From assembly GCA_051313645.2 (NCBI GenBank), contig JBNRSN020000071.1:1550001-1614000 (forward strand): a stretch of DNA of 64,000 nucleotides, given 5' to 3'. The notes under the pieces are model-generated. The model did not search any database. It saw only the letters and a program-made list of their open reading frames with translations, and was not told where the DNA came from. A program made the position numbers and the translations under genes. Each line of letters begins with the position of its first letter. Position 1 is the first letter of the stretch. Positions 32,423 to 64,000 of this stretch are shown piece after piece. The DNA comes from Centroscyllium fabricii. Its lineage: Eukaryota.

Positions 32423-35400
32423 AACCCTCCAAAGGAAGAAAAGGGTCAGTCGGCGGGGAAGAGCCCACCGTCCAAGAATAAACTTAAAATTCGAGCCAGG
32501 TTGTTCAGGGGTGATGTTAGAAGCACTTCTTCACACAAAGGTTAGTGGAAATCTGGAACTCTCTGCCCCCTAAAAGCTGTCGAAGCTGAGGGTCAGTTGA
32601 AAATTTCAAAACTGAGATTGATTTTCATTAGGCAAAGGTGTTAAGGATTACGGAACCAAGATGGGGTAGATGGAGTTAAGACACAGATCAGCTATGATCT
32701 AAGTGGATGACAGAATAGGCTCAAGGGGCTGAATGGCCTTCTCCTGTTTCCATGAATGGCCTCCTTCTGTGCTGTATGATTCTATGAGGCAAGCACTAAA
32801 GCCGCACTATGTTTTATCCAGCACTAAATTTACATCATTCTGTTTGAAAAGTTGGACAGAAAAGCTTTTGATTATTGCATCTGTACCTCAACTCCATTTA
32901 CCCGCCTTCGCTCCATATTATTAGATACCCTTACCCAACAAAAACCTATCGATCTCAGTCTTCAAAGCTCCAATTGTCCCTCAGCACCCACCGCCTTTCG
33001 GGGGGAGATAGCTCCAGATTGCCGCTCCCCTTTGTGTGACAAAGAGCTTCCTGATTTCACCCCTGAAGGGCCTAGTGCTAAGTGGATGAGGCAATCCCAG
33101 AGGGGTAAGGGAGCCAGGAGGAGTGTGGTAAATGTGTATTTACCATCTGTATATAATGCCCACACCAGTAATGACCTGACGGCATTACTGGCACGGTGGC
33201 ACAGTGGTTAGCACAGTTGCCTTACAGCACTAGAGACCCGGGTTCAAATCCGGCCTCGGGTACTATCTGTGTGGAGTTTGCACATTCTCCCCGTGTCTGC
33301 GTAGGTTTCCTCCGGGTGCTCGGGTTTCCTCCCACAGTCCAAAGATGTGCGGGTTAGGTTGATTGGCCAGGATAAATTGACCCTTAGTGTTAGGGTGATT
33401 GAATATGTGGGGTTATGGGGATAGGGTGGGATATGTGTCGGTGCATGCTCGATTGGGATCGAGGGATATGGGGACAAGGCAAGGACAGGGTGTTACCGAA
33501 TTAACGACCTCGGAGACGAGTTATTAAGAGGTGAAAACTATAGGCTTTTATTAGCTAAAGGTGGACATGCACCAGCTAGTCGACCGTCCCCAGGAATGGC
33601 TGGGGGAAGGGAGACGGCCGCTTATATACCTGGTCCTGGGAGGGAGGAGTCGCAGGCGGGGCCAGCATGTGCATGTCCAGGTAACTACACACAGATAACT
33701 ATTATACAACATAGTGAAAAGGTGATTACAGCAATATATACATATATATACAAAGAGTGGTTTACCACATTCACCCCTTCTTTAAAACGAAAGTCCGGCG
33801 GGGTGAATGCGACAGTTTAATTTATAAGTTCAGTCTTTCAGGCGGCCTGGTAAGCCTGGTTGACCGGCGCACCACTGGTGGTGGTGTCGGCGGACGTAAG
33901 ATAGCCGGTTGAGTTGGTCGTGGCGAGATCGGCGGGCGCACCTCTGGTGGTGTCGGCGGGCGTAAGATAGCCGGTTAAGTTGGTCGTAGCGAGATCGGCG
34001 GTGGCGGTCGGTTCCTCGTCGGTGCCCTTGCGGTGACGGTTGGCGGCGCGCTCTCCCCCTCGTCGTCTGACTCTTGGGGGCGTGCACTATGGAGCCATGC
34101 CGGGGACCATGCCGTGCTGCCTACAGGTGCCGGGTGGACGTACTGAGGTGCTGGAGTCTCGTACTGGGCAGCGTACCTTGGTGCCGGTGGCCCGGGGCGG
34201 GGGGGGGGGGGTGGTGGCTGGCAGACGCGGGTGCGCGGGCTGTTGGGCGGGGCTGGTTTTGGGGGCACCCGCTGGTGCCAGGTCCTTGATGGACACTGTG
34301 TCCTCCCTCCCATCGGGGTACGCCAAGTAGGCGTACTGGGGATTGGCGTGCAGGAGGTGGACCCGTCCGACCAGGGGGTCTGACTTGTGGCCCCTCACGT
34401 GCTTCCTGAGTAGGACTGGTCCCAGGGATGATAGCCATGACGGCAGCGAGGTCCCGGAAGCCGACTTCCTAGGGAAGGCAAAAAGTCGCTCGTGAGGGGT
34501 GGTGTTAGTGGCCGTACAAAGGAGTGACCGGATGGAGTGGAGCGCTTCGGGGAGGACGTCCTGCCAGCGGGAGACCTGGAGGCCTTTAGACCGTAGGGCT
34601 AACAGGATGGCCTTCCAGACCGTGGCGTTCTCCCTCTCTACCTGTCCGTTCCCCCGGGGGTTGTAGCTGGTAGTCCTGCTAGTAGCGATGCCTTTGCCTA
34701 GTAGGAACTGACGCAGCTCGTCACTCATGAAAGAGGCCCCCCGGTCGCTATGGATGTAGCTGGGGTAGCCGAACAGGGAGAAAATGCTGTGGAGGGCCTT
34801 GATGACTGTGGCAGAGGTCATGTCCGGGCAGGGGATGGCGAAGGGGAAACGCGAGTACTCGTCGATGACGTTAAGAAAGTACACGTTTCTGTTGGACGAG
34901 GGAAGGGGCCCTTTAAAATCAACGCTGAGTCGTTCAAAGGGGTGGGTGGCCATGATCAGGTGCGCCCGGTCTGGCCGAAAGAAGTGCGGCTTGCACTCCG
35001 CACAGACCTGGCAGTTCCTGGTCATGGTCTTGACCTCCTCGATGGAGTAGGGGAGGTTGCGGGACTTAACAAAGTGACCAACCTGGTGACCCCCGGGTGG
35101 CAGAGGTCGTTGTGCAGGGTTTGGAGACGGTCCACTTGTGCGCTGGCACATGTACCGCGTGATAGGGCGTCTGGGGGTTCGTTGAATTTCCCGGGCCGGT
35201 ACAAGATATAATAATTGAAAGCGGAGAGCTCAATTCTCCACCTCAGTATCTTGTCGTTCTTGATTTTACCCCGCTCTTTGTTGTTGAACATAAAAGCGAC
35301 TGAGCGTTGGTCCGTCAGCAGGGTAAATCGTTTGCCGGCCAGGTAGTGCTTCCAGTGACGCACTGCTTCAACAATGGCCTGGGCCTCCTTCTCAACGGAA

Positions 35401-37365: not shown

Positions 37366-39802
37366 TTGCAAAGGGAGATGGACCGCATGGTTGACCAGAA
37401 CAGGTTGCAGGCCACCTTCCCCTACCTGGACAACGTGACCATCTCCAGCCATGACCAGCAGGACCACGATGCCAATCTGGCCAAATTCCTCCACACGGCA
37501 AAACGGCTAGATCTCACATACAACAAAGACAAGTGTGTCTTTAGTACAGATCGGCTCGCCATCCTCGGATACGTGGTGGAAAACGGGGTCCTCGGCCCCG
37601 ACCCACAGCGTATGCGCCCCTTACAGGAACTGCCCCTTCCTCACAACCCCAAAGCCCTGAAGAGATGTCTGGGATTTTTCTCCTATTACGCGCAATGGGT
37701 TCCCCAGTTCGCGGATAAGGCCAGACCGCTCCTTAAGGCCGCCGTCTTCCCCCTCTCGGTAGAAGCCCACACGGCATTCGCCCGGATCAAGGAAGATATT
37801 ATCAAGGCGACCATGCACGCCGTTGATGAATCCATCCCTTTCCAGGTGGAGAGTGATGCTTCGGATTTTGCCCTTGCCGGCACCCTGAATCAGGCAGGCA
37901 GGCCCGTAGCGTTTTTCTCCCGCACCTTACAGGGACCAGAAATTCGCCACTCTGCAGTGGAAAAGGAGGCCCAGGCCATCGTGGAGGCCGTGCGCTACTG
38001 GCGTCATTACCTGGCCGGTAAGCGTTTTACCCTGCTCACCGACCAACGGTCGGTCGCGTTTATGTTTAATAATAAACAAAAGGGTAAAATCAAGAATGAT
38101 AAGATCCTGCAGTGGTGGATCGAGCTCTCGACTTACGAGTACGACATTCTTTACCGACCAGGCAAACTCAATGACCCCCCGGACGCACTGTCCAGGGGAA
38201 CGTGCGCCAGTGCCCAGCTAGACCGGCTGAAGGAACTCCACGATCGCCTCTGCCACCGGGTGTCACCAGACTTGCCCACTTCGTAAAATCCCGTAGCCTC
38301 CCCTACTCCATCACGGAGATCAAGGCTATGACCCGAGAGTGCCCTGTTTGCGCCGAGTGCAAACGCCAATTTTTCAGGCCAGACACGGCGCATCTCATTA
38401 AGGCCACCCGCCCCTTTGAACGTCTAAGCGTGGACTTCAAAGGCCCCCTCCCCACCACCGACCGCAACTCGTACTTCCTCACGGTCGTAGACGAGTTCTT
38501 CCCCTTCGCCTTCCCCTGCCCAGATATGACGAGCGCAACGGTGATCAAACACTTCACCACACTGTTCGATATTTTCGGTCTCCCCAGCTACATCCATCGT
38601 GACCGGGGGGCGTCGTTCATGAGCGATGAACTGCGTCAGTTTCTGCTCCAGAAAGGGGTTGCCTTGAGCAGAACGACCAGTTACAACCCCCGGAGGAACG
38701 GCCAGGTAGAAAGGGAGAACGGGATCATCTGGAAGGCGGTCACCCTGGCCCTGAAGTCCAGAGGCCTTCCAGTGTCCCGTTGGCAGGCAGTCCTCCCTGA
38801 TGCGCTGCACTCGATACGCTCTCTGTTGTGTACGGCCACCAACGCCACACCTCACGATTTAATCTTTTCATTCCCCAGGAAGTCGACTTCGGGGACAGCC
38901 CTTCCACCGTGGCTCACGATGCCAGGGCCGGTCTTGCTTAGGAAGCACGTCCGCGGCCATAAGACCGACCCCCTGGTAGACAAGGTGCAGCTGCTGCACG
39001 CCAACCCGCAGTACGCGTACGTACATTTCCCGGACGGGCGCGAGGACACCGTCTCCATCAAGGACCTAGCGCCCGCCGGGAGCACCACAGCAGAGCCCCT
39101 GGTCGGGCAACAGCCCGCCCAGCCACTATATTTCGGCCACCTCCAGCCACTACATATCGACCACTGGCCGATACACGACCCACAACCCACCGGAGGCTGG
39201 CCGCCACTACCGTATAGTTCGGAGCCCCCGCCATTGCCAGCTGAGGACCAAGACTCGGATGACCAGCTGCAGGCACAGCAGCAACCGCAGGGCTCGGACC
39301 CACCACCACCACCAGCACCTACAGTACCGGCACCAGCGCTGCCGCCACCACCACCGGCTCCAGCGCCGCCGATGCTGCAGGAACCAGAACATTTGACAGA
39401 GACCCGGCGGTCCTCCAGACAGACGCGACCGCCGGATAAGCTAATCATGAACTGCTCTGTCCATTCACCCCGCCGGACTTGATTTTCAAAGAAGGGGTGA
39501 ATGTGGTAACCGTTATATGTACTATTATTACCACCCTAATATTGTTACCAATATTACATGTATGTATAGCGGTCGGGTGCATGATGCAACTGTCCTGTAT
39601 TGCGACACTGTCGTGGGGTCAGGTCAGCCACACCTCTAACTCCTCCCCTCAGGTGAGTGCCTTATAGGTGGGGACTGACCGGCCCCCATTCATTCTGTAC
39701 CTGATGTTCGATCGGAGCGTAGCTCCGTTGTAAGCTAATAAAAGCCTATAGTTAAGGTAACTACTCGTCTTTGGTTTTATTAAGACTATTGACGATACGT
39801 CA
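37366..39802 (+). mobile_element. 5'-deleted Gypsy element E2 (RT C-terminal half, RNase H, IN, PPT, 3' LTR 39502-39802) inside the gag of D
   Basis: ORFs 37366-38286 and 38202-39482 (one frameshift); PPT GAAGGGGTGAA; LTR abuts the N-terminal gag codons of D. Confidence 0.9.
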
Positions 39803-41724: not shown

Positions 41725-44700
41725 TGTGGTAAACCACTGTCTTGTATATATGTATATATGTCTCCCCCTTGTGTCCCCTCCCTGTAACTGTACTATAACC
41801 ATACTATAAAGTGCAACTCCTTGCCTTCTTGTCAGGGAGGACTCACCTGGGAGGACCCCGCTCTTTGGCTTCCTCCCCAGGCTCCGCCCACTGAGTATAA
41901 GAGTGCCAGCACACCTGAGTGCTTTCACTTCGGCTTGGAAGATCGTCAGACCTGTGTCCATTTCTATGTCAATAAAAGCCTCGATTACATCTGACCATCG
42001 ACTGGTAGTAATTGATTGTGCATCAATTTTATTGACATCGTTTCTACAAAAAAAAAGAGGATGGAAAAGTTCCTGAGACCCGACAGACTCGACCTCGTCC
42101 CGCGATCAGCAGGCGCTGAGCGGGCCTTCACGCACTGGGTCTCCTGCTTTGAAGCCTTCCTCGAAGAATCCCGCCTGACCGTGGACACAGAACAGCGGAA
42201 ACTCAAAGTCCTGCGGGCCCAGGTCAGCCCTGAGCTCTTCAGCTTGATCGAGGGCGAAACGACCTATAGGAACGCCCTGGACATCTTAAAAGCTCGTTTT
42301 ACTGCCCCGACGAACGAAATCTACACCAGGCATCTACTACTAAACAGGAAACAACAGCCTGGTGAGTCCTTCACGAACTTTATGGCAGCGTTGCGAACGC
42401 TCATGCGCGCCTGCAATTGTAGGCCGCTAACGGCCAACCAACACCAGGACATAATCCTCAGGGATGCACTGGTGGCTGGACTCAGGTCAACCTATACTCG
42501 CCAGCGGCTGCTGCAGCAGAGCAATATAGACCTGGCGGCGGCTGAAGCGCTAGCGGAATCGCTGGAGGCGGCGCACGTACAAGGAGAGGCCTACGACCAG
42601 CAAGGGGCGCGGGCGCTGACCCCGTGGGCGGGCGAGACGACCACCGCTGCGCCCCCACTCACGTCCGCAGCAGCGGCCCGACCCCAGAAGTGCTATTTCT
42701 GCGGGCAGACGAAACACCCCAGGCAGCGCTGCCCTGCAAAAGATGCGCTGTGATCCAGCTGCAGGAAGAAGGGACATTATGCAGCAGTCTGCAAGAGCAA
42801 ACCACCACCCCCCCCAGCAGCGCCGCGTGTGCTCCCACAGAGCCGCCATTTTGGGGCAGCCAGCACTCACCCCCACGTGGCGAACGTGGGGGCGGCCATT
42901 TTGGATCGGGCGGCCATCTTACACCCTCCACACGGCGAACACGGAGGCAGCCATTTTGCATCAGCGCCGCGTTTGCTCCCACAGGGCGGCCATTTTGAGG
43001 CCTACTCAGCCGCATGCTGTACTACTGGGAGTGATCCACGGGTTGACCTGCAACTCCCACAACTCGCATCGATCACGCTGGACCAGACCCAGCCCCACCA
43101 ACTGGCGCGATCCACCATGGACAATGAGGTAAACGGCCGTGCGGTTAACTGCCTTTTTGACTCGGGGAGTACCGAAAGTTTTATACATCCGGACACGGTA
43201 CGGAGGCTTTCCCTCATGGTACTCCCCGCGCGCCAGCGGATTCTAATGGCTTCCAACACCGCAACGGCGGAAGTCGGTGGTCTTTGCGTGGTTACACTTA
43301 AGGTGCGGGGTACTGTGTATAACCGTTTTAAACTGTTGGTCCTCCCCCACCTCTGCGCTGCCGTCCTACTGGGCCTTGACTTTCAGAGCCACCTCGACAG
43401 CGTGATCATGAAATACGGTGGCCCCCTCCCCCCGTTGACAGTCTGTAGCCAGCAGTTTACACAGCATGAACCCCACACCGTTTGCAGCCTGTTGACCCTC
43501 CCTCACTATTTGCTAACCTCACCCCCGACTGTAAGCCCATAGCTACAAAAAGCAGGCGCTACAGCGTGGGGGACAGACTGTTCATTAAGTCTGAGGTCCA
43601 GCGGCTACTGAGGGAGGGGATCATCGAGGCCAGCAACAGCCCCTGGAGAGCCCAGGTTGTAGTCGTCAAGAACGGCACCAAACACCGCCTGGTCATCGAC
43701 TACAGCCAGACGATCAACCGCTTCACTCAATTGGACGCATACCCCCTGCCTCGCATCTCAGACATGGTCAATGAGATTGCGCAGTACAGGGTGTTTTCTA
43801 CAATTGACCTGAAGTCGGCATATTATCAGCTCCCCATCCACCCCGGAGACCGCCACTTCACCGCCTTTGAGGCGAATGGCCGCCTCTACCACTTCCTGAG
43901 GGTCCCTTTCGGAGTCACCAACGGCATGTCGGTCTTCCAGCGGGAGATGGACCGGATGGTGGACCAAAACGGGCTGCTGGCTACCTTCCCCTACCTCGAC
44001 AACATCACCATCTGTGGCCACGACATGAGGGACCACGATGCGAACTTGGCCAGATTCCTCCACACCGCCAAGCGCCTCAACCTCACCTACAATGAGGAAA
44101 AATGCGTTTTCCACACCACCCGCCTCGCCATCCTGGGGTGCGTCGTGGCAAACGGGGTCATCGGCCCGGACCCCGAACGCATGCGCTCCCTCATGGAGCT
44201 TCCCCTTCCCCAGAGCCCAAAGGCCCTGAAAAGGTGCCTGGGCTTCTTTTCGTACTACGCCCAATGGGTCCCCCAGTACGCTGACAGAGCCCGCCCCCTA
44301 CTGAAATCCACCTCCTTTCCCCTGTCGAACGAGGCTCGGGCGGCCTTCGACAGCATCAAAGCAGCCATCGCCAAGGCGACCATGCACGCTGTGGACGAAT
44401 CCACCCCGTTCCAGGTGGAAAGTGATGCCGCTGATTTTGCCCTGGCCGCCACTCTCAACCAGTCTGGACGGCCGGTAGCCTTCTTCTCCCGCACCCTCCA
44501 CGGCCCCGAAATCAGGCATTCATCAGTGGAGAAGGAGGCCCAGGCCATCGTGGAAGCGGTGCGGCACTGGAGACACTACCTGGCCGGTAGAAGATTTACC
44601 CTGCTCACTGACCAGCGGTCGGTGGCTTTCATGTTTAGCAACAACCAGCGGGGTAAAATAAAAAAGACAAATTCCTACGGTGGAGAATTGAACTGTCCAC

Positions 44701-47155
44701 CAATAATTACGATATCTTGTACCGGCCCGGTAAACTCAATGAGCCCCCGGACGCACTATCCCGTGGAACCTGTGCCAGCGCACAAGTGGATAGACTGCAG
44801 TCCATCCACAATGACCTCTGCCACCCCGGAGTCACCCGGCTCTATCACTTCGTGAAGTCCTGCAACCTGCCCTACTCCGTTTCGGATGTCCGGTACATCA
44901 CCAGGCACTGCCCGACATGTGCGGAGTGCAAACCAATTTTTTTTCGACCAAGCAGAGCCAGTTTGGTCAAGGCCACCAGCCCCTTCGAACGACTGAGCGT
45001 CAATTTCAAGGGCCCCCTCCCCTCCACCAACAGGAACGGGTACTTCCTCACAGTCATTGACGAGTACTCACGCTTCCCTTTCGCAATCCCTTGCCCTGAC
45101 ATGACCACAGCCACGACCATCAGGTGTCTGCACAGCATCTTCACCATGTTCGGCTTCCCCAACTATATCCACACAGACAGGGGGTCGTCGTTCATGAGTG
45201 ATGAGCTGCGCCAGTACCTGCTGTCCAAAGGGATTGTGACGAGCAGGACCACTAGCTACAACCCCCGGGGCAACGGGCAGGTTGAGCGGGAGAACGGTAC
45301 CGTCTGGAAGGCCATCAGCCTCGCCCTACGGTCCAGGGGCCTCCCCGTCTCCCGCTGGCAGGAGGTCCTCCCAGATGCCCTCCACTCCATTAGGTCACTG
45401 CTCTGCACCGCCACCAATGCCACCCCTCACGAGCGGATGTTTTGCTTCCCCAGGATGTCTGCATCTGGGACCTCGCTGCCAGCGTGGCTGACGTCCCCCG
45501 GGCCTGTCTTGCTCCGGAGACACGTGAGGGCCCACAAGACAGACCCCCTGGTCGAAAGGGTACAGCTCCTCCACGCCAACCCCCAGTACGCCTACGTGGC
45601 ATTCCCGGACGGGCGGGGGGACACATGTCTACATTCGAGACCTCGTGCCCTCGGGTGCCCCAGAGACCACCGGCCCCCCCACCCCACCACCGTTCCCCTT
45701 CACGAGACGCTGTCGTCTGGTTCTTTTACAGCTCCTATAGACGGCATGTCGGAGACTCGGGATCGAACGATGCACAACACCCACCCCTCCACGACTGCAC
45801 CACCACCGACTTTGGAGGACACCACACAGCCGGAAGTCCTACAACCGCTGGAGCCAGCACGGCCGGCAACCCCAGGATCAACTCCAAGACCTGCACCGCG
45901 ATGGTCGCTTCGGCAGACCAGACCACCAGAAAGACTTAACCTTTGAAATAAAGGTTCTTCACCCTCGCCGTCATTTTTTTAAACAGGGGGTGAATGTGGT
46001 AAACCACTGTCTTGTATATATTGTATATATGTCTCCCCCTTGTGTCCCCTCCCTGTAACTGTATTATAACCATACTATAAAGGCTACAGAGTGACTTGGA
46101 CAGGTTAGGTGAATGGGCAAATGTATGGCAGATGGCGTACAATGTGGATAAATGTGAGGTTATCCACTTTGGTGGTAAAAATAGAGAGACAGACTATTAT
46201 CTGAATGGTGACAGATTAGGGAAAGGGGAGGTGCAACGAGACCTGGGCGTCATGGTACATCAGTCACTGAAGGTGGAAATGCAGGTACAGCAGGCAGTTA
46301 AGAAAGCAAATGTCATGTTGGCCTTCATAGCGAGGGGATTTGAGTACAGGAGTAGGGAGGTGTTGCTGCAGTTGTACAGGGCCTTGGTGAGGCCACACTT
46401 GGAGTATTGTGTGCAGTTTTGGTCTCCCAGCTTGAGGAAGGCCATTCTTGCTATTGAGGGAGTGCAGCAAAGGTTTACTAGATTGATTCCCGGGATGGCC
46501 GGACTGACATATCAAGAAAGACTGGATCAACTGAAGAATGAGGGGGGATCTCATAGAAACGTTTAAAATCCTGACGGGTTTGGACAGGTTGGATGCGGGC
46601 AGAATGTTCCCACTATTGGGGAAGTCCAGAACCAGGGGGCACAGACTAAGGATAAGGGGTAAGCCATTTAGGACTGAGATGAGGAGAAACTTCTTCACCC
46701 AGAGAGTGGTGAACCTGTGGAATTCTCTACCACAGAACGTTGTTGAGGCCAGTTCGCTAGATATATTCAAAAGGGAGTTAGATGTAATACTTACAACTAG
46801 GGGTATCAAGGGATATGGCGAGAAAGCAAGAATGGGGTACTGATGTAGCATGTTCAGCCATGAACGTGTTGAATGGCGGTGCAGGCTCGAAGGGCCGAAT
46901 GGTCTACTCCTGCACCTATTTTCTATGTATCTATGTATCTATGTAACTCCTTGCCTTCTTGTCAGAGAGGACTCACATGGGAGGACCACGCTCTTTGGCT
47001 TCCTCCCCAGGCTCCGCCCACTGAGTATAAGAGTGCCAGCACACCTGAGTGCTTTCACTTCGGCTTGGAAGATCGTCAGACCTGTGTCCATTTCTATGTC
47101 AATAAAAGCCTCGATTACATCTGACCATCGACTGGTAGTAATTGATTGTGCATCA
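41725..47155 (+). mobile_element. Full-length, decayed Gypsy element C (5' LTR 41725-42025; 3' LTR 45995-47155 interrupted by CR1)
   Basis: gag ATG at 42061 with zinc knuckle, PR LFDSGS, RT, RNase H, HHCC-DDE integrase. One premature stop and several frameshifts. TSD cacac/cccac. Confidence 0.93.
46081..46942 (+). mobile_element. 5'-truncated CR1 LINE inside the 3' LTR of C
   Basis: WQMAYNVDKCEVIHFG...LVRPHLEYCVQFWSP; the LTR sequence resumes at about 46943. Confidence 0.9.
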
Positions 47156-47364: not shown

Positions 47365-48445
47365 ATCTGGTTGGCAGATAGAAAACAGAGAGTTGGAATA
47401 AACGGGTCATTTTCCGAGTGGCGGGCAGTGACTAGTGGGGTACCGCAAGGATAGGTCCTAGGACCCCAGCTGTTCACAATATATATTAATGATCTGGACG
47501 AGGGAATTGGATGTAATATCTCCAAATTTGCAGACGACACAAAGCTGGGTGGGAGGGTATGCTGTGAGGAGGATGTCGAGAAACTCCAATGTGATTTGGA
47601 CAGGTTGGGGGATTGGGCAGTTACATGGCAAATGCACTATAATGTGGATAAATGTGAAGTTATCCACTTTGGTGGCAATAACAGGAGGGCAGATTATTAT
47701 TTGAATGGCAATAGATTGGGAGATGGGGAAGTGCAAAGAGACCTGGGTGTCCTTGTGCACCAGTCACTGAAGGTAAGCATGCAGGTGCAACAGGCAGTTA
47801 AGAAGGCAAATGGTATGTTGGCCTTCGTGGCAAGAGGGTTCGAATATAAGAACAATGATGTCTTGCTGCAGCTCTACAGGACCTTGGTGAGACCACACCT
47901 CGAGTATTGTGTGCAGTTTTGGTCACCTCATCTGAGGAAGGACGTTCTTGCCATTGAAGGAGTGCAGCGAAGATTCATCAGGCTGATACCTGGGATGGCA
48001 GGAATGACATATGGGGAGAGATTGAGTCGATCGGGCTTATACTCACGAGTTCAGACGATTGAGAGGGGATCTCATTGAAACCTATAAAATTCTTTCAGGC
48101 CTGGACAGACTGGATGCAGGAACAATGTTTCCGATGAAAGGGGAATCCAGAACCAGGGGCAATAGTCTAAGGATAAGGGGAAAGCCATTTAGGACTGAGA
48201 TGAGGGGAATTTCTTCACCCAGAGAGTGGTGAACCTGTGGAATTCTCTGCCACAGAGGGTGGTGGAGACAGGTTCATTAAATATATTCAAGGAGTTGGAT
48301 ATATCTCTTAAGGCTGAAGGGATATGGGGAGAAGGCAGGGACAGGGTACTGAATCTGAAAGATCAGTCATGATCGAATTGAATGGCGGAGCAGGCTCGAA
48401 GGGCCGAATGGCCTACTCCTGCTCCTATCTTCTATGTTTCTATGT
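47365..48445 (+). mobile_element. 5'-truncated CR1 LINE
   Basis: SGVPQG, KFADDTK, VRPHLEYCVQFWSP and 3' UTR. Confidence 0.9.
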
Positions 48446-52045: not shown

Positions 52046-53273
52046 TCCAGGATGGTTGTTCTTTGTGTGCAAGCCCGATGGCAAGTGTCAGTAGGCTATT
52101 GGACTGCAGAGGGCATCGTAGCAGAGTCCAATCATCACACCCACAGCTCAAAAGCATTGCCACCAGTGTAGCACCCCAACCACCAAATTATCTGCCATCA
52201 GCTAACTCATGGACCAGGGATCAAACTCAAGGAAAATCCGATTTTTCTACAGATAAAAAAACAGGACCAGGAGTGTGCCCCTGACTCCAGTCGCAATGGC
52301 CTCCCCGCCTCCCATATAGCCCGTTCCAAACTGCACCGCCCATCCCCAGACTTCACGAGGGATGCTACTCGAGAGGCAGATGGCCCGACATTGAGCTCTT
52401 GACTCGGGCGCCCTACCCGTGGAGGAGCGACCAGCGCCTATGGATGAGACTCGAGGGCCAATTTCCACCAATTCTCGGTTCGGGCACGCACTGGTCACAC
52501 AGCTCCAACTCTGGGCCAGAATACGGGCCCCAGACCAAAATCTACCTCATTATTTATTGTAGGGCATGATGCTTCTGTCATTACAAAACAGTGTTTCCTC
52601 TAACTGACTATGAGCACCACAGGGACCAGTAGTTTTTAAAATTAAACTAGAGATGTTGGTAGTGAAGCAGAAGAGCATATTTCTGCTGTTGTGCAAGATT
52701 TGACAATTTAACAGTATTAGACTCATATTTTTAACTCCCTGGCACTTTTTATCAAAGGATACTTTAAGTACATTTTTCTCCACTTGTTCACATCACCAGC
52801 TGTCTGAGTTTACCCTCTGACTGACATTCGCCATGTCCACATCAGGTAATTAGAATCCTGGACACATTTTTCTTCATTTGGACAACAATCCAAGTGTCAA
52901 CACGATGGTGGAAGGTGAGCAGACAAACATTGAGAGATTCTGAACAACTCACGTTGGAGGCGCCAAAGGAAAGCAAGCCAGGCATATTGTAGCTGATATG
53001 ATGAGTCTGAGGTGATTCAGAGCAAGCTAAATGAATAGTTTAACAACAAAGGTCTTGCCTTCAGTATCAACTTTGACTGGCAGCCGTGGCTCAGTGGGTA
53101 TCACTCTGGTCTGAGGCAAACAGGTTGTGGGTTCAAGCCCCCCTCCAGATTACTGAGCACAAAATCCAGCCTGACACTCTAGTGCAGTGCTGAGGGAGCG
53201 CTGCACTGTCCGACATGCCGTCTTTTGAATGAGACATTAAACCGAGGTCCCGTCTGCTCTCTCAAGTGGACGT

Positions 53274-56200
53274 TGACGTATTGTCAATATCTCAGAGTAA
53301 AAGACTCAACGAGTAGTTACCACAACTATAGGCTTTTAATCACTTACTTAGGAGCTACCCTCCGAACGAACATCTGAGCAGGAATGAGGGAGCCTCAGTC
53401 AGTCTCCACCTATAAAGGCCTCACCTGGGGGAGGAGTTAGAGGTGTGGCTGACCTGGCTCCCGACAGTGTTACAGGGCTGTGTATCACACATACAGAGCC
53501 AATTATTGGCAACAAGAATACAGTGGTATAACATAACATTATGGGTTACCACATTCACCCCTTCTTGAAAATTTTAAGTCCGGGGGGGGTGAATGGACCG
53601 AGCAGTTCAATATCAGCCTATCCGGTGGTCGTGCCAGCCTGGAGGACCGCCGGAGATCCGGTGATGATCCTTCATGGTCCGTGCTGCTCGAGTCCGCTGG
53701 TGGTGACAGTTGCCCTGGTGCCATGGTTTCGGGTGGTGATGGTCTCCGCTGGTCCGAGCTATCGGAGTGGTGGTCCTGGGTTGGCCACTGCTGGGGCTCT
53801 GGAAAACTCGGAGGCCATTGTAGGTGTAGGGGGTGTTCTGGATACTGTGGCTGAGCGGCCTGCTGGCCGACCAGGAGCTCTGCGGTGCTTCCTGCGGGCG
53901 CCAGGTCCCTGATAGATACGGTGTCCTCACGCCCGTCCGGGAACTGCACGAATGCGTATTGCGGGTTCGCATGCAGGAGCTGCACCTTGTCCACCAGGGG
54001 GTCGGTCTTGTGGCCACGGACGTGTCTCCTAAGGAAGACCGGCCCCAGTGTCGTGAGCCATGGAGGAAGAGCTGTCCCCGAAGTCGACTTCCTGGGAAAA
54101 GCAAAAATCAAATCATGAGGAGTTGCGTTAGTGGCCGTACATAGGAGAGAGCGTATAGAATGCAGCGCGTCTGGGAGGACTGCCTGCCAATGGGCCACTG
54201 GAAGGCCTCTGGACATCAGAGCCAGGGTGACAGCCTTCCAGATGATCCCATTCTCCCTTTCTACCTGGCCGTTCCCCCGGGGGTTATAACTGGTCGTTCT
54301 GCTCATGGCAACTCCTTTCTGGGGCAGAAACTGACACAGTTCATCGCTCATGAACGATGACCCCCGGTCGCTATGGATGTAGCTGGGGAGACCGAAAATG
54401 GCGAACAGCGTGGTGAAGTGTTTTATCACCGTTGCGCTCGTCATATCTGCGCAGGGGAAGGGGAACTCATCTACGACCGTGAGGAAGTATGAGTTGCGGT
54501 CGGTGGTGGGGAGGGGGCCTTTGAAGTCCACGCTGAGACGTTCAAAGGGGCGAGTGGCCTTGATGAGGTGCACCGTGTCTGGCCGGAAAAATTGGGGTTT
54601 GCACTCGGCGCAAACAGGGCACTCTCGGGTCATAGCCTTGATCTCCGTGATGGAGTAGGGGAGGCTACGGGATCTAACAAAGTGGGCGAGTCTGGTGACA
54701 CCCGGGTGGCAGAGGCGGTTGTGGAGGTCCTTCAGCCGGTCCAGCTGGGCACTGGCGCACGTTCCCCTGGACAGTGCGTCCGGGGGTTCATTGAGTTTCC
54801 CTGGTCGGTAAAGAATGTCATACTCGTAAGTCGAGAGTTCGATCCGCCACCGCAGGATCTTATCATTCTTGATCTTACCCTTCTGTTTATTATTAAACAT
54901 AAACGCCACCGACCGTTGGTCGGTGAGAAGGGTAAAACGCTTACCGGCCAGGTAATGACGCCAGTAGCGCACGGCCTCCACGATGGCCTGGGCCTCCTTT
55001 TCCACTGCGGAGTGGCGAGTTTCGGGTCCCTGTAGGGTGCGGGAGAAAAACGCTACGGTTCTGCCTGCCTGATTCAGGGTGGCAGCAAGGGCGAAGTCCG
55101 AAGCGTCGCTCTCCACCTGGAAGGGAATGGATTCATCAACAGCGAGCATGGTCGCCTTGATGATGTCTTCCTTTATCCGGGCGAATGCCGTTTGGGCTTC
55201 TACCGAAAGGGGGAAAACAGCAGCCTTGAGGAGTGGTCTAGCCGTGTCCGCGAACTGTGGGACCCATTGTGCGTAATAGGAGAAAAATCCGAGGCATCTC
55301 CTCAAGGCTTTGGGGTTGTGAGGTAGGGGCAGTTCTTGAAGGGGTCGCATACGCTGTGGGTCGGGGCCGAGGACCCCGTTCTCCACCACGTATCCGAGGA
55401 TGGCGAGCCGGTCTGTATTAAAGACACATTTGTCTTTGTTATACGTGAGGTCCAGCTTATCTGCCGTGTCGAGAAATTTGGCCAGATTGGCATCGTGGTC
55501 CTGCTGGTCGTGGCCGCAGATGGTCACGTTGTCCAGGTAGGGGAAGGTGGCCTGCAACTTGTTCTGGTCAACCATGCGGTCCATCTCCTGCTGGAACACG
55601 GACACTCCGTTGGTCACGCCGAAGGGGACCTGGAGGAAGTGGTAGAGCCGACCGTTCGCCTCGAAGGCGGTGTAGGGGCGGTCGGCTTTCCGGATCGGGA
55701 GTTGGTGATACGCTGACTTAAGGTCGATCGTGGAGAACACCTTGTACTGGGCGATCTGATTGACCATTTCCGAGATGCGGGGAAGAGGGTAGGCGTCGAG
55801 CCCGGTATAGCGGTTGATGGTCTGGCTGTAATCGATCACCAGCCGTTGTTTCTCGCCAGACTTTACCACTACAACCTGGGCACGCCAGGGGCTGGTGCTG
55901 GCTTCAATTATCCCCTCCTTCAGCATACGCCCGACCTCCGACCTGATAAACGTGCGATCCCCCACACTGTACCGCCGACTCTTGGTAGCAATAGGTTTGC
56001 ACTTGGGGTCGAGGTTGGCGAACAGTGAGGGGGGGTCGATTTTCAGGGTGGAGAGGCCGCAGGCCGGGCTCCGCTTTGGGAAGGGACTGTCCCGGCTACT
56101 GACGGTGAGGGGGGGCAAGGTCCCGCCGAACTCCATTGTCACGCTCTTGAGGTGGCACTGGAAATCCAGACCTAGTAAGGCTGGGGCACACAACTGCTGG

Positions 56201-57993
56201 AGGGTGTACAATTTAAAATTACGGTACACGCACCCCTTGACTGTGAACGTGACGGAGCTGTAGCCAGTGACGTCCGCGGTGTGGGACTTTGAAGCAAGGG
56301 AGACTTGGTAGTTTGTGGGCAGGATCTGCAGTCCGCAGCGCTGCACTGTATCGGGGTGCACAAAGCTCTCCGTGCTTCCAGTGTCAAATAGGCAATTAGT
56401 AGTATGGCCGTTTATTTTGATGCGCATTATTGAGTTAGACAGGGTGTGTGGCCTGTCCTGGTCCACTCTGGGTATGGCTGAAGCAGACGTGTGCTTTTGT
56501 GTGTGTGGGCCCCCTGCTGGTTGGGGCTGTACACAAAATGGCGGCGCCCCTGGCTCGCACATGGTGGGGCCCTGGGGACAAAATGGCGGCGCCGAGGGGT
56601 CACACATGGTGGGCCGCCGGGGGCGAGATGGCGGCGCCCGTGGTTCGCACGCGGCTGACCGCTGTGAGCGCGCTGGCAGCGCCCGTGGTTCGCACGCAGC
56701 GGGCCGCGGTGGCTGGGTTGGCGGTGCCCGTGGTTCGCACGCAGCGAGCCGCGGTGGTCGGGTTGGCGATGCCCGTGATTCGCACGCAGCCGGCCGCATT
56801 GGGTCTGCTGCTGGCGTTGGGGGGTCCCGCTTGGCCGGCCTTTGCCGCCTCGGGGTGGGAGATGGGGGCGCTTTCCTCCTACCCCCAGACCGTCGCTGGA
56901 TCGCGCTGCTATTGCAGCTTACCTGAGGTCTGTCGGAGCTTTCACAGGCTGCGCTGTTGTACCTGGAGTTGGGCGCTGTTGGTGCTGATCTGCAAGCCTT
57001 TGCGTAATGTCCCTTCTTGGCGCACCTCTCACAGGTCGCGGTCCTTGCTGGGCATCTCGCTCTCGGGTGCAGTCCCTGGCTGCAGAAGTAGCAGCGTTTG
57101 TCTTTTGTGGCTGTCACAGCCATCGTGGGGGTCTCGACCCGTCGTGGTGCTGCCCAGGCCTGGGTCCGTTGTGGCGTGGCCCACATGTCGTAGGCCTGCG
57201 GGTTTGTGCCGCTGTAAGCTTGTAGTTTGTTGCGTGCTCCTTCCACGGAGTTAGATATAGCAATCGCGTCTTCGAGGGACAAAGTGTCTTTTCCGAGCAG
57301 CCGCTGGCGGGCCTCCACGCACCTTAGTCCAGTTACATACGCGTCTCGGACGAGGAGGTTCGCCTCCTCTTCTGCTGTCCGGGCTTGGCAGCCACAGACC
57401 CGTACCAGGGCCTGGAGCGCTTGCTCAAATTGTTCATTAGTCTCACCCGGTAGTTGTGGTCTGGTCGCGAGCACATGTCTGGCGTAGACCGAATGGACCG
57501 GGCGCTCGTAGCATTTCCTCAGCTTTTCCACTGCCCCTGGGTAGGTTTTGGCGTCTCGGATGAGGGAGAATACTCGGCTGGAGATCCTAGACCGGAGAAC
57601 CTGTAGCTTGTTCCCGTCGGTTGTAGCCTTGGCGGCGTCCATATAGGCCTCCAGGAGACCGAACCAGTGTTCGAACGTGGTGGCGGCGGCAGGGTCCTGT
57701 GGACTGATATCCAGCTTTTCTGGCTTTACTGCACCGCTCTCCATTTTAAAAAACTTTAAGTGATTAAAATTGACGTATCGTCAATATCTCAGAGTAAAAG
57801 ACTCAACGAACATCTGAGCAGGAATGAGGGAGCCGCAGTCAGTCTCCACCTATAAAGGCCTCACCTGGGGGAGGAGTTAGAGGTGTGGCTGACCTGGCTC
57901 CCGACAGTGTTACAGGGCTATGTATCACACATACACAGCCAATTATTGGCAACAAGAATACAGTGGTATAACATAACATTATGGGTTACCACA
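53274..57993 (-). mobile_element. Full-length Gypsy element A (3' LTR 53274-53553, 5' LTR 57771-57993)
   Basis: TG...CA LTRs, near-identical apart from a 57-bp deletion in the 5' LTR; PPT; single ORF. Confidence 0.96.
53539..57744 (-). CDS. Gag-Pol polyprotein, 1401 aa (gag with two zinc knuckles, PR, RT with YLDN, RNase H, integrase)
   Basis: CYFC..H..C/CERC...GH...C, LFDTGS, FGVTNG/YLDN, ESDASD..EKE..TDQ..DALSR, HHCC and D,D35E motifs in Gypsy order. Confidence 0.93.
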   Translation of the reverse strand: MESGAVKPEKLDISPQDPAAATTFEHWFGLLEAYMDAAKATTDGNKLQVLRSRISSRVFSLIRDAKTYPGAVEKLRKCYERPVHSVYARHVLATRPQLPGETNEQFEQALQALVRVCGCQARTAEEEANLLVRDAYVTGLRCVEARQRLLGKDTLSLEDAIAISNSVEGARNKLQAYSGTNPQAYDMWATPQRTQAWAAPRRVETPTMAVTATKDKRCYFCSQGLHPRARCPARTATCERCAKKGHYAKACRSAPTAPNSRYNSAACESSDRPQVSCNSSAIQRRSGGRRKAPPSPTPRRQRPAKRDPPTPAADPMRPAACESRASPTRPPRLAACEPRAPPTQPPRPAACEPRALPARSQRSAACEPRAPPSRPRRPTMCDPSAPPFCPQGPTMCEPGAPPFCVQPQPAGGPHTQKHTSASAIPRVDQDRPHTLSNSIMRIKINGHTTNCLFDTGSTESFVHPDTVQRCGLQILPTNYQVSLASKSHTADVTGYSSVTFTVKGCVYRNFKLYTLQQLCAPALLGLDFQCHLKSVTMEFGGTLPPLTVSSRDSPFPKRSPACGLSTLKIDPPSLFANLDPKCKPIATKSRRYSVGDRTFIRSEVGRMLKEGIIEASTSPWRAQVVVVKSGEKQRLVIDYSQTINRYTGLDAYPLPRISEMVNQIAQYKVFSTIDLKSAYHQLPIRKADRPYTAFEANGRLYHFLQVPFGVTNGVSVFQQEMDRMVDQNKLQATFPYLDNVTICGHDQQDHDANLAKFLDTADKLDLTYNKDKCVFNTDRLAILGYVVENGVLGPDPQRMRPLQELPLPHNPKALRRCLGFFSYYAQWVPQFADTARPLLKAAVFPLSVEAQTAFARIKEDIIKATMLAVDESIPFQVESDASDFALAATLNQAGRTVAFFSRTLQGPETRHSAVEKEAQAIVEAVRYWRHYLAGKRFTLLTDQRSVAFMFNNKQKGKIKNDKILRWRIELSTYEYDILYRPGKLNEPPDALSRGTCASAQLDRLKDLHNRLCHPGVTRLAHFVRSRSLPYSITEIKAMTRECPVCAECKPQFFRPDTVHLIKATRPFERLSVDFKGPLPTTDRNSYFLTVVDEFPFPCADMTSATVIKHFTTLFAIFGLPSYIHSDRGSSFMSDELCQFLPQKGVAMSRTTSYNPRGNGQVERENGIIWKAVTLALMSRGLPVAHWQAVLPDALHSIRSLLCTATNATPHDLIFAFPRKSTSGTALPPWLTTLGPVFLRRHVRGHKTDPLVDKVQLLHANPQYAFVQFPDGREDTVSIRDLAPAGSTAELLVGQQAAQPQYPEHPLHLQWPPSFPEPQQWPTQDHHSDSSDQRRPSPPETMAPGQLSPPADSSSTDHEGSSPDLRRSSRLARPPDRLILNCSVHSPPPDLKFSRRGECGNP

Positions 57994-58574
57994 TTCGTAA
58001 AAGATCCCATGCTACTATTGGAGGAGCAGAGGAGTTCTCCCTGCTCTCCTGGCCAATATTTAATCGCTTAACCAACATCACAAAACTGGTCATTTTCTCA
58101 TTGCTGGTTGTAGGATAGGGCCGTGTACAAAATGGCTGCCATGTCCTTCCTACAATTAAAACAATGACTACACTTCAAAAGTACTTCATTCTGTAAAGCA
58201 CTTTGTGATGCCCTAGAGATGTGAAAAGTGTGCTAAATAAATCCAAGCGCTTTATGTGGGAAAGTGGAGTTATGGCAAATGGATTTTTATGCGTTGCTAT
58301 ACGGATGGTAAGTGCAACAATAATTGCAATTTTCTTTAAACTTTGACATTTGACCCTGCAAAGAAAGTAGCTCGGAATGTTTTCTATTCGTCATTCATTA
58401 CTTTTAGGTCACGAACACTGAGCTCTTGTATGCTCGGCATCTAATTGAGTCTTCCAATTTCATGCAGTCAGTGTGTAGGTCCTTTATTCCGAAAAATATC
58501 TCCCGACAGAAAAACATTGCCCAACAGCACCAGTGCTCCAGACTGAAAACTTCATGCCTGATTAATAATTGCGC

Positions 58575-61500
58575 TGACGTATCGTCAAAATCTCTTAATA
58601 GAAGACTGGACGAGTAGTTACCGTAACTATAGGCTTTTAATAACTTACTTTGGAGCTACCCTCCGAACAAACATCAGAACAGAATGAGGGAGCCTCGGTC
58701 AGTCCGCATCGAAAAAGGCCTCACCTGGGGGAGGAGATAGAGGTGTGTCTGACCTGGCTCCACGACAGTATTACAGCAGTATTACAGGGCTGTGTATCAC
58801 ACACAGCCAATTGTTGGCAACAATAATTCAGTGGTACATATACATATTATGGGTTACCACATTCACCCCTTCTTGAAAATTTAAAGTCCGGTGGGGGTGA
58901 ATGGACCGAGCAGTTCAATATCAGTTTGTCCGGCGGTCGTGTCAGCCTGGAGGACCGCCGGAGTTCCGGTGATGGTTCTTCGTGGTCCGTGCTGCCCGAG
59001 TCCGTTGGTGGTGACAGCGGCTCTGGTGCCGTGGTTTCAGATGGTGATGGTCTCAGATGGTCCGAGCTATCGGAGTGGTGGTCTTGGGCTGGCCACGGCT
59101 GGGGCTCTGGAAACCTCGGAGGCCATTGTAGGTGTAGGGGGTGTTCTGGATACTGTGGCTGGGCGGGCTGCTGGCCGACCAGGGGCTCTGCTGTGGTGTT
59201 TCCTGCGGGCGCAAGGTCCCTAATTGAAACGGTGTCCTCACGCCCGTCCAGGAACTGTACAAACGCGTATTGTGGGTTCGCATGCAGGAGCTGCACCTTG
59301 TCCACCAGGGGGTCGGTCTTGTGGCCACGGACGTGTCTCCTAAGGAAGACCGGCCCTGGTGTCGTGAGCCATGGAGGAAGAGCTGTCCCCGAAGTCGACT
59401 TCCTGGGAAAAGCAAAAATCAAATCATGAGGGGTGGCGTTAGTGGCCGTACACAGGAGAGAGCGTATAGAATGCAGCGCGTCTGGGAGGACTGCCTGCCA
59501 ATGGGCCACTGGAAGGCCTCTGGACTTCAGAGCCAGGGTGACCGCCTTCCAGATGATCCCATTCTCCCTTTCTACCTGGCCGTTCCCCCGGGGGTTATAA
59601 CTGGTCGTTCTGCTCGTGGCAACCCCTTTCTGGAGCAGAAACTGACGCAGTTCATCGCTCATGAACGATGACCCCCGGTCGCTATGGATGTAGCTGGGGA
59701 GACCGAAAATGGCGAACAGCGTGGTGAAGTGTTTTATCACCGTTGCGCTCATCATATCTGCGCAGGTGAAGGGGAAGCGGGAGAACTCGTCTACGACCGT
59801 GAGGAAGTATGAGTTGCGGTCGGTGGTGGGGAGGGTTCCTTTGAAGTCCACGCTGAGACGTTCAAAGGGGCGGGTGGCCTTAATGAGGTGCACCGTGACT
59901 GGCCGGAAAAATTGGGGTTTCCACTCGGCGCAAACAGGGCACTCTCGGGTCATAGCCTTGATCTCCGTGATGGAGTAGGGGAGGCTACGGGATCTGACGA
60001 AGTGGGCGAGTCTGGTGACACCCAGGTGGCAAAGGCGGTCGTGGAGGTCCTTCAACCGGTCTAGCTGGGCACTGGCGCACGTTCCCCTGGACAGTGCGTC
60101 CGGGGGTTCATTGAGTTTGCCTGGTCGGTAAAGAATGTCTTACTCGTAAGTCGAGAGTTCGATCCGCCACCGCAGGATCTTATCATTCTTGATCTTACCC
60201 TTCTGTTTATTATTAAACATAAAAGCCACCAACCGTTGGTCGGTGAGAAGGGTAAAACGCTTACCGGCCAGGTAATGACGCCAGTAGCGCACGGCCTCCA
60301 CGATGGCCTGGGCCTCCTTTTCCACTGCAGAGTGGCGAGTTTCGGGTCCCTGTAAGGTGCGGGAGAAAAACGCTACGGGCCTGCCTGCCTGATTCAGGGT
60401 GGCAGCAAGGGCGAAGTCCGAAGCGTCGCTCTCCACCTGGAAGGGAATGGATTCATCAACAGCGAGCATGGTCGCCTTGATGATGTCTTCCTTTATCCGG
60501 GCGAATGCCGTTTGGGCTTCTACCGAAAGGGGGAAAACGGCAGCCTTGAGGAGTGGTCCAGCCTTGTCCGCGAACTGTGGGACCCATTGTGCGTAATAGG
60601 AGAAAAATCCTAGGCATCTCCTCAAGGCTTTAGGGTTGTGAGGTAGGGGCAGTTCTTGAAGGGGTCGCATACGCTGTGGGTCGGGGCCGAGGACCCCGTT
60701 TTCCACCACGTATCCGAGATGGCGAGCCGGTCTGTATTAAAGACACATTTGTCTTTGTTATACGTGAGGTCCAGCTTATCCGCCGTGTCGAAGAATTTGG
60801 CCAGATTGGCATCGTGGTCCTGCTGGTCGTGGCCGCAGATGGTCACGTTGTCCAGGTAAGGGAAAGTGGCCTGCAACTCGTTCTGGTCAACAATGCGGTC
60901 CATCTCCCTTTGGAACACTGACACTCCGTTGGTCACGCCGAAGGGGACCCGGAGGAAGTGGTAGAGCCGACCGTTCGCCTCGAAGGCGGTGTAGGGGCGG
61001 TCGTCTTTCCGGATCGGGAGTTGGTGATACGCTGACTTAAGGTCGATCGTGGAGAACACCTTATATTGGGCGATCTGGTTGACCATTTCCGAGATGCGGG
61101 GGACGGGGTAGGCGTCGAGCCCGGTGTAGCGGTTGATAGTCTGGCTGTAATCGATCACCAGCCACTGTTTCTCGCCAGACTTCACCACTACGACCTGGGC
61201 CCGCCAGGGGCTGGTGCTGGCTTCAATTATCCCCTCCTTCAGCATACGCCCGACCTCCGACCTGATAAACGTGCGATCCCCCAAACTGTACCGCCGACTC
61301 TTGGTAGCAATAGGTTTGCACTTGGGGTCGAGCTGGGCGAACAGTGAGGGGGGGTCGATTTTCAGGGTGGAGAGGCCGCAGGCCGGGCTCCGCTTTGGGA
61401 AGGGACTGTCCCGGCTACTCACGGTGAGGGGGGGCAAGGTCCCGCCGAACTCCATTGTCACGCTCTTGAGGTGGCACTGGAAATCCAGACCTAGTAAGGC

Positions 61501-63397
61501 TGGGGCACACAACTGCTGGAGGGTGTACAATTTAAAATTACGGTACACGCACCCCTTGACTGTGAGCGTGACGGAGCAGTAGCCGGTGACGTCCGCGGTG
61601 TGGGACTTTGGAGCAAGGGAGACTTGGTAATTCGTGGGCAGGATCTGCAGTCCGCAGCGCTGCACTGTATCGGGGTGCACAAAGCTCTCCGTGCTTCCAG
61701 TGTCAAATAGGCAATCGATAATATGGCCATTTATTTTAATAGGCATTATCGAATTCGACAGAGTGTGTGGCCTGTCCTGGTCCACTCTGGGCATGGCTGA
61801 AGCCGACGTATACTTTTGTGTGTGGGGGCCCCTTGCTGGTTGGGGCTGTACACAAAATGGCGGCGCCCCTGGCTCGCACATGGTGGGGCCTTGGAGACAA
61901 AATGGCGGCGCCCCTGGCTCGCACATGGCGGGTCGCTGGGGACAAAATGGCGGCGCCGAGGGGTCGCGATGGCGGCGCCCGTGGTTCGCATGCGGCTGAC
62001 CGCTGTGAGCGCGCTGGCGGCGCCCGTGGTTCGCACGCAGCGGGCCGCGGTGACTGGGTTGGCGGCGCCCGTGGTTCGCACGCAGCGGGCCGCGGTGGTC
62101 GGGTTGGCGGTGCCCGTGATTCGCACGCAGCCGGCCGCGTTGGGTCTGCTGCTGGCGTTGGGGGGTCGCGCTTTGCCAGCCTTTGCCGCATCGGGGTGGG
62201 AGCTGGGGGCGCTTCCCTTCTACCCCCGGACCGTCGCTGGATCGCGCTGCTATTGCAGCTTACCTGAGGTCTGTCGGAGCTTTCACAGGCTGCGCTGTTG
62301 TACCTGGAGTTGGGCGCTGCTGGTGCTGATCTGCAAGCCTTTGCGTAGTGTCCCTTTTTGGCGCACCTCTCGCAGGTCGCGGTCCTTGCTGGGCATCTCG
62401 CTCGCGGGTGCAGTCCCTGGCCGCAGAAATAGCAGCGTTTGTCCTTTGTGGCTGTCGCAGCCATCGTGGGGGTCTCGACCCGTTGTGGTGCTGCCCAGGC
62501 CTGGGCCCGTTGTGGCGCGGCCCACATGTCGTAGGCCTGCGGGTTTGTGCTGCTGTACGCCTGCAATTTATTGCGTGCTCCTTCAACGGAGTTAGCTATG
62601 GCGATAGCCTCTTCCAGAGACAAAGAGTCTTTTTCGAGCAGCCGCTGGTGGGCTTCCACGCACCTCAGGCCGGTTACGTACGCGTCTCGGACGAGGAGGT
62701 TCGCCTCCTCTTCTGCTGTCCGGGCTTGGCAGCCACAGACCCGTACCAGGGCCTGGAGCGCTTGCTCAAACTGTTCGTTGGTCTCACCCGGTAGTTGTGG
62801 TCTGGTCGCGAGCACATGTCTGGCGTAGACCGAATGGACCGGGCGCTCGTAGCATTTCCTCAGCTTTTCCACTGCCCCTGGGTAGGTTTTGGCGTCTCGG
62901 ATGAGGGAGAATACTCGGCTGGAGATCCTAGACCGGAGAACCTGTAGCTTGTTCCCGTCGGTTGTAGCCTTGGCGGCGTCCATATAGGCCTCCAGGAGAC
63001 CGAACCAGTGTTCGAACGTGGTGGCGGCGGCTGGGTCCTGTGGACTGATATCCAGCTTTTCTGGCTTTACTGCACCGCTCTCCATTTCAAAATTTTTAAG
63101 TTATTAAAATTGACGTATCATCAATATCTCTTAATAAAAGACTGGACGAGTAGTTACCGTAACTATAGGCTTTTAATAACTTACTTTGGAGCTACCCTCC
63201 GAACGAACATCAGAACAGAATGAGGGAGCCTCGGTCAGTCCGCACCTATAAAGGCCTCACCTGGGGGAGGAGTTAGAGGTGTGGCTGACCTGGCTCCATG
63301 ACAGTATTACAGCAGTATTGCAGGGCTGTGTATCACACACAGCCAATTGTTGGCAACAATAATTCAGTGGTACATATACATATTATGGGTTACCACA
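58575..63397 (-). mobile_element. Full-length Gypsy element B, same family as A, decayed (LTRs 58575-58861 and 63111-63397)
   Basis: gag-pol broken into ORFs 61736-63085, 60622-61926, 60140-60709 and 58847-60055; TSD tgcgc/tgcgt. Confidence 0.95.
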
Positions 63398-63724
63398 TGC
63401 GTGTCGCCAGCATTCATCAACGATCTGGTGACGAAAGTGAAAAGCCAACCACACTGGGTTCAAATAGACGGCAGCATCAGCCAGAATTTCCAGTCACTGA
63501 TCAGAATTTTCAACGTCAAAAACGATGGATTTCTGGGTGCTCAAGCAAGTCCCAAACTGCAGATGTGTTTTTTTAAAACTGCTACGCAGAACACTCTGCA
63601 GATACACACTCGTGACTTTACAAATTGCATGGCCCTCGTCGTAGACAGTACTCCTATGAATATTGAACTGAGAAAATGTTACAGTTCATGAGTAAAATGA
63701 ATGAGTAGGTGCCTTTGGACACCC

Positions 63725-64000
63725 TGTGGTAAACCAGTTGTTGTTGTTGTTGTTATTCACTGTAGTTCATTCTTGCCTGTTGTATATAACCTGCCTGGGC
63801 ATGCCTCTGCTGACTCCGCCTCTGTGGCTCCACCCTCATGCCCTGGTATAAAGGCGACTGCTTTCCAGTCCCCTGGCATTCAGGACCGGTCAACCAGTAG
63901 AGGCATGCTCTCGATCTTTCGTAAATAAAAGCCCGTTAGTTACTTTCTTAACTCCAGTCTTTTGATAGTGATTGCGCATCAATTTTATTTACGAAAAGTT
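63725..64000 (+). mobile_element. 5' LTR (63725-63981) and leader of a further Gypsy element G running out of the window
   Basis: TGTGGTAAACC start, TATAAA, AATAAAAGCC, GCATCA end, then an ATTTTATT leader like those of the other elements. Confidence 0.85.

Follow-up and report, generated by a model that had tools for sequence, protein, structure and literature searches.

The closest described counterpart of the structure discussed here comes from HIV-1 and SIV, in which the G-rich 3' end of the polypurine tract (PPT) and of the central PPT (cPPT) lies in a helix bounding a single-stranded, A-rich 5' end (PMC4439019, available portion). According to the same portion of that paper, the helix was found by SHAPE in three genomes, and pausing of reverse transcriptase (RT) was proposed, which would not explain the precise 3' cut. 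Sequence boxes upstream of the PPT are also on record, namely, the U-box/T-box of retroviruses and Ty1 and TCTT in the fission-yeast Tf elements (PMC10085805, available portion). For the other primer site, the primer-binding site (PBS), the nearest system is the self-priming 'pretzel' of Tf1 and sushi (PMC10085805 and PMC6317226, each in its available portion). Here, these systems are compared with an inverted repeat at the PPT of five retrotransposons in a 64,000-nt stretch of the Centroscyllium fabricii genome (contig JBNRSN020000071.1, positions 1,550,001 to 1,614,000), hereafter the window.

The elements and their inverted repeat

The hairpin-bearing elements are single-ORF Ty3/gypsy LTR retrotransposons (Metaviridae). 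Element A has the Ty3/gypsy domain order PR-RT-RH-IN (Pfam), no Pfam match to chromodomain or env families was found in its ORF, and Ty3 Gag-Pol is the best PDB match; the RT motif is YLDN/YLDD. The LTRs (~250-325 bp, TG...CA) are direct, the PPT adjoins the 3' LTR, and the 5-bp target site duplication (TSD) is exact or has one change in most two-LTR elements, with only 3/5 positions matching in element A. The nearest named proteins (72-77% identical) are from cartilaginous fishes, and further ones are from sea anemone, mussel, nematode and insect. From the double zinc-knuckle spacing, the lineage is presumably Mag-like. Motif searches to name the clade, conducted in papers and supplements (including PMC6238403 and PMC12471100), gave no match. 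The cestode Saci2 elements have a 4-bp TSD according to the available portion of PMC12471100, unlike the 5-bp TSD of the present family.

An earlier note on this DNA had described a 10-bp inverted repeat between the PPT/LTR junction and an upstream arm in elements A, B, C, D and E2. All its hairpin coordinates are correct, and the repeat is real at all five sites (Table 1). It is exact over 10 bp in A, B, D and E2, with 24, 24, 22 and 22 nt between the arms, respectively, and comprises 9 bp including one G-U pair in C, with 19 nt between the arms. The positions given for A, B and D stand, but their order has to be read in reverse: these elements are on the minus strand, so their ranges start with the PPT/LTR junction, the upstream arm coming second. 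The stem had also been reported to be kept whether it lies inside the ORF (A, B) or after the stop codon (C); this holds for both settings, the full list being A, B and E2 inside the ORF and C and D after the stop. With the arm thus coding in some elements and non-coding in others, and with a C-run of varying length, amino-acid constraint on the arm was rejected as an explanation.

Table 1. Coordinates of the features within the window
Feature	Position	Strand	Remarks
Element A, ORF gag-PR-RT-RH-IN	53539..57780	-	1413 codons stop to stop
Element A, 3' LTR	53274..53553	-	
Element A, 5' LTR	57771..57993	-	Lacks the internal poly(A)-signal segment that the PBS would pair; the 3' LTR has it
Element A, upstream arm	53586..53595	-	Within the gag-pol ORF tail
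Element A, partner of the arm	53552..53566	-	PPT 53554-53566 and first TG of 3' LTR 53552-53553
Element A, loop	53562..53585	-	GGAC motif, T-rich tract, A-rich 5' part of PPT
Element B, hairpin	58860..58903	-	Junction 58860-58869, arm 58894-58903
Element D, hairpin	33768..33809	-	Junction 33768-33777, arm 33800-33809; past stop codon
Element E2, hairpin	39462..39503	+	Arm 39462-39471, junction 39494-39503
Element C, hairpin	45958..45994	+	9 bp, one G-U, five-G PPT
Element A, PBS-position sequence	57757..57769	-	Complementary to 3' LTR poly(A)-signal segment 53334-53346
Element B, 5' stem	63097..63183	-	Poly(A)-signal segment 63171-63183, PBS 63097-63109
Element C, 5' stem	41966..42038	+	Poly(A)-signal segment 41966-41977, PBS 42027-42038
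PBS-stem loci beyond the window			L225-L263, L032, L034, L042, L043, L098, L114, L118

The repeat exceeds local chance, as only 1 of 4090 10-mers in the internal region of element A has an exact complement within 60 nt upstream. Pairing of the PPT G-run with the arm is predicted with a probability of 0.88-1.00 in a 500-nt context. The stability of the 101-nt folds is not unusual (z -0.8 to -2.5), and Rfam gave no match at E<=1 within positions 53100-64000 of the window. Because all five elements belong to one clade, they are not independent observations.

Several other features of the window should be mentioned. A solo LTR of the A/B/E2 type (35935-36222, plus strand) is inserted in reverse in the RT of element D at the FP/YLDN codons, flanked by a 5-bp TSD with one change. 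The 3' LTR of element C is split by an insertion (46083-46941) with related sequence at 47591-48445 and elsewhere. A D-type LTR (39885-40147) is 99.2% identical over 264 nt to the 3' LTR of D (33491-33754), from which it lies ~6 kb apart in inverted orientation. The LTR end of the A/B/E2 branch (e.g., 57764-57787, minus strand) is spanned by a 7-bp hairpin with a 3-nt loop, the exact form of which is absent from other branches. Positions 1-8408 are occupied by a 21-bp satellite (~400 copies, 91% matches).

Conservation and distribution of the arm

The exact 10-bp pattern has 90,429 matches in the 7.2-Gb genome, a few of them loci counted on both strands, against 0 for the control; the matches are related by descent and not independent. 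For a sample that did not depend on the arm, the search used the PPT end together with the P-D/E-R-L codons upstream of it and gave 61,189 matches; among 30 loci taken from these, 14 have the perfect 10-mer and 22 the 8-nt core allowing G-U. Altogether, 221 copies were gathered, 187 of which had enough integrase to be placed in 24 groups. The arm was a requirement in the searches that yielded some of the copies, although the rarer subfamilies were first found in lists without it. Since a PPT-like end was part of every search pattern, families whose PPT is very different may have escaped detection. The 23 representatives of an earlier set form one clade (support 98), and the conservation alignment comprises 22 representatives, groups 5 and 20 being omitted. 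Three loci were excluded as lying outside the clade: L260 and L261, which lack a pol match, and L262, at 27% identity. The first two (G000:C1:28788469 and C2:142430518) represent a repeated non-pol family with a GC-rich palindrome beside a PPT-like word.

Across the diverged subfamilies of the host genome, the arm is kept above the neutral level, in keeping with the conservation that had been claimed for it. The eight arm-core columns, whose predicted partner is the PPT G-run, are 0.86-1.00 conserved among the 22 representatives versus a mean of 0.69 at four-fold sites (n=75; 17% of them >=0.86). The upstream spacer reaches 0.36-0.68, values understated by the gap-free alignment. Four-fold divergence is as high as 0.60 (A vs. 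D 54/91, A vs. C 53/88), and the LTRs of the D type have only 21-41 nt in common with those of the A/B/E2 type. A conserved stem of 10 bp, as originally proposed, was not recovered: only 6-8 bp are common, and the two outer pairs are kept in 9/22 and 6/22 representatives. Complementarity to the PPT exceeds that of shuffled sequences (p<=0.05) in 18/23 groups, which are kin and thus do not amount to 18 independent tests.

The stem often runs into the first U3 bases, and does so by two registers, either directly (A/B/E2, D) or with U+1 bulged. In the bulged register, typical of most other subfamilies, three arm bases pair with U3 positions +2 to +4; 89% of cells are paired in this register vs. 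84%, and the class has 4,440 genome matches. Extension into U3 is modestly above random (mean -4.4 vs. -2.7 kcal/mol; 8/22 at p<=0.1, non-independent). Both the integrase tree and LTR similarity place the D branch within the bulged-register subfamilies, yet it carries the unbulged 10-mer; thus, the unbulged state is convergent or has been repeatedly lost. Recombination of the whole 3' end as the source of the perfect arm of D is unsupported, as D-type LTRs match those of their integrase-tree neighbours; a short local template switch may account for it. In the C branch, a five-G PPT is accompanied by a five-pyrimidine arm in 6/7 copies of group 23, and the fifth pyrimidine is mostly absent from groups 12 and 14, which also have five-G PPTs. 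The earliest-branching groups, 1 and 2, have only ~6-7 bp.

Conservation of the arm cannot by itself be assigned to pairing, because the GGAC motif, predicted to be unpaired in the loop, is conserved to about the same degree (0.82-0.95). This motif occupies alignment columns +7 to +11, lies 25-28 nt upstream of the junction in most host groups and is altered in the C branch and group 18; we take a similar motif to be present in other gypsy elements, and several outside relatives show by eye an echo of the form RRAC(T/A). The similar conservation of arm and loop raises the possibility, in our view a rather doubtful one, that the arm belongs to a ~45-nt cis block (C-run, GGAC, T-tract and PPT) recognised as sequence by RT or Gag, and that its complementarity is incidental, having arisen once, e.g., by fold-back copying. 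Such a block would fit the arm-to-junction distance of 33-36 nt in 22/22 representatives, and sequence elements rich in T are on record from positions immediately upstream of PPTs (PMC10085805, available portion). However, of 4092 8-mers in element A, only 10 have an exact complement within 60 nt, pairing has been extended into U3 by two different registers, and the C-run of the A/B branch varies widely in length, with its TTCACC part persisting.

The covariation test suggested in the earlier note gave two-sided changes in 0/10 and 0/11 pairs, an absence that a sequence block would also predict; as the PPT side never varies, the test has low power and is weak rather than negative. A subfamily in which a change at PPT position -4 is compensated did not emerge from three pattern searches of the genome. 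The first yielded 72 matches against 9 for the control, most of them ordinary subfamily copies that had mutated; the second gave 33 loci, almost all of which belong to group 11 and carry a mutated PPT; the third gave 287 matches vs. 235 for the control. In groups 18 and 19, a stop codon within the arm breaks the stem, and there is no excess complementarity (p 0.89 and 0.86). Judged by eye, these two groups make up roughly half of the 100 matches listed out of 929; they thus number roughly in the hundreds and have expanded without the stem, another point in favour of recognition as sequence.

The single-base changes within the arm bear on whether RNA or DNA would fold. It is improbable, in our estimation, that the selected structure is a fold of minus-strand DNA formed after clearing by RNase H, in which the copy of the arm would pair with the template of the PPT and assist in removing the spent primer or prevent re-priming. 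The stem is also predicted in the DNA strand, and the T-to-C arm changes of groups 2, 6, 14 and 24, mismatches in RNA, would be G-T wobbles in minus-strand DNA. Conversely, the A-to-G and C-to-T arm variants, including that of group 11 (28 sampled copies), disrupt pairs in DNA and leave wobble pairs in RNA, and the folds predicted for DNA, at -9 to -14 kcal/mol over 101 nt, are weak. Changes compatible with wobble pairing are transitions, a frequent type of change in any case.

The earlier note had also considered a role in packaging or strand transfer, for which the stem might expose GGAC in its loop to a long-range or dimer contact. The motif is conserved there, GTC(T/C) is often found in a predicted U5 loop, and the C branch lacks both. 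Nevertheless, loop/U5 duplexes are hardly more stable in cognate than in non-cognate combinations (-5.65 vs. -5.48 kcal/mol, p 0.28) or with shuffled U5 (-5.36, sd 0.39). We consider a loop contact quite unlikely; a kissing interaction between the loop and U5 in particular was rejected, cognate duplexes being no better than either control.

Outside the host genome, 88 related loci were collected, and the junction could be placed in 49 of them, forming 30 clusters; junctions were set by a PPT-like motif and checked against the LTR pair where present, and some may be wrong. The PPT ends of these relatives resemble those of the host. Excess upstream complementarity occurs in 1/30 clusters, i.e., at chance level (mean z -0.23, Wilcoxon p 0.15). 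Hence, the hairpin is a feature of the host's branch and not of the clade, and its generality across the wider lineage is not upheld. In one contig of another organism, both arms are covered, with a single letter different and one gap; near-identical elements thus exist in a second organism. No relatives were found in viral contigs. The bacterial MAG records L111-L118 contain these animal-type retrotransposons, probably by contamination.

Pairing at the other primer site

Both primer sites had been proposed to lie in self-complementary RNA, and as predicted structures both do. The PBS was analysed in 22 elements with a 5' LTR, namely, 15 from the host genome and 7 from metagenomes or MAGs, the latter picked after the pairing had been noticed and thus showing presence, not frequency. 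A tRNA-type start is absent, as TGG does not occur in the first 5 nt after the LTR in 22/22 elements. Instead, the 12-15 nt that follow the LTR pair with the LTR's poly(A)-signal segment, at -13.2 kcal/mol for cognate and -4.6 kcal/mol for non-cognate combinations, the cognate pairing being best or tied in 19/22 (permutation p 1e-4). In a fixed register, an average of 11.5 of 12 positions are paired, and three types of Watson-Crick pair occur at position 8 and likewise at position 9. The compensatory changes extend over elements from the host and from outside it. Covariation is thus detected by this approach where both sides vary, which makes the PBS stem a positive control for the PPT stem. 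The PBS stem is well supported as a structure and is the stronger feature of the two.

In 10/22 elements, the poly(A)-signal segment lies ~81-85 nt downstream of a TATA-like word, which suggests, with the start site putative, that the partner of the PBS is internal to R rather than the 5' end of the transcript. Whether the stem functions as a self-primer we consider about an even question; it may also mask the 5' poly(A) signal. A more far-reaching and decidedly improbable scheme is that the folded RNA of a tRNA-free gypsy clade outside the chromoviruses supplies both of its primers. In this scheme, the PBS would capture the poly(A)-signal segment of R and mask the 5' signal, and a cut in the RNA duplex would yield an internal self-primer. 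The PPT stem of the host branch would be a second RNA:RNA substrate, putatively pre-nicked at the PPT/U3 edge before DNA is made. The primer cut of Tf1 needs RNase H; in the present scheme, the RNase H of the clade itself would also make the nicks in the PPT stem.

A possible role of the PPT stem and comparison with known systems

The earlier note had suggested that the stem may set plus-strand primer cleavage. As cleavage of the PPT takes place in an RNA:DNA hybrid, and as relatives without the arm keep a similar PPT end, a direct role in setting the cut is unlikely. The stem is probably a selected, lineage-specific, non-essential accessory element with a tuning function. By analogy with HIV/SIV, we marginally favour a reading in which the predicted RNA stem makes RT pause at the U3 edge and initiates processing of the PPT, the final cut not being set by it. 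On reaching the base of the stem there, RT copying the minus strand would pause and introduce RNase H cuts by which release of the PPT begins. The site of the last cut would, as before, depend on the sequence of the PPT within the RNA:DNA hybrid. The loop would contain the GGAC motif, the T-tract and the A-rich start of the PPT.

A helix at the PPT is as such already known from HIV/SIV, and the gypsy form described here is a variant. Among titles and beginnings of abstracts, mostly of non-subscription papers, no description of a PPT hairpin in gypsy elements or of a PBS:poly(A)-signal stem was found. As in the available account of HIV/SIV, the G-run is predicted to be paired and the A-rich 5' part of the PPT unpaired in the elements of the window; unlike HIV/SIV, the carrier is a Ty3/gypsy retrotransposon, and the structure consists of one short local arm restricted to a single host branch. 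With the U-box/T-box, as far as the available description goes, the present family shares a conserved T-rich tract directly 5' of the PPT; however, those boxes are sequence elements, and the complementary arm of this family sits further upstream. If the PPT stem acts, it would represent an independent origin of the HIV/SIV PPT helix, the role of which was left open in the available portion of PMC4439019. Stems that are strong, bulged, wobble-containing or broken occur naturally in this genome with the PPT invariant, which makes the idea of RT pausing testable on short RNAs. Taken alone, the PPT stem is a modest, lineage-specific feature. The covarying PBS stem matters more, as it points to tRNA-independent priming in a widespread animal gypsy clade outside the chromoviruses. 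Judging by what is available of PMC10085805 and PMC6317226, this clade resembles Tf1 and sushi in lacking a tRNA-type PBS and in pairing the PBS with its own LTR-derived RNA, and differs from them in that the partner is the poly(A)-signal segment, seemingly internal to R, and in that no chromodomain is matched.
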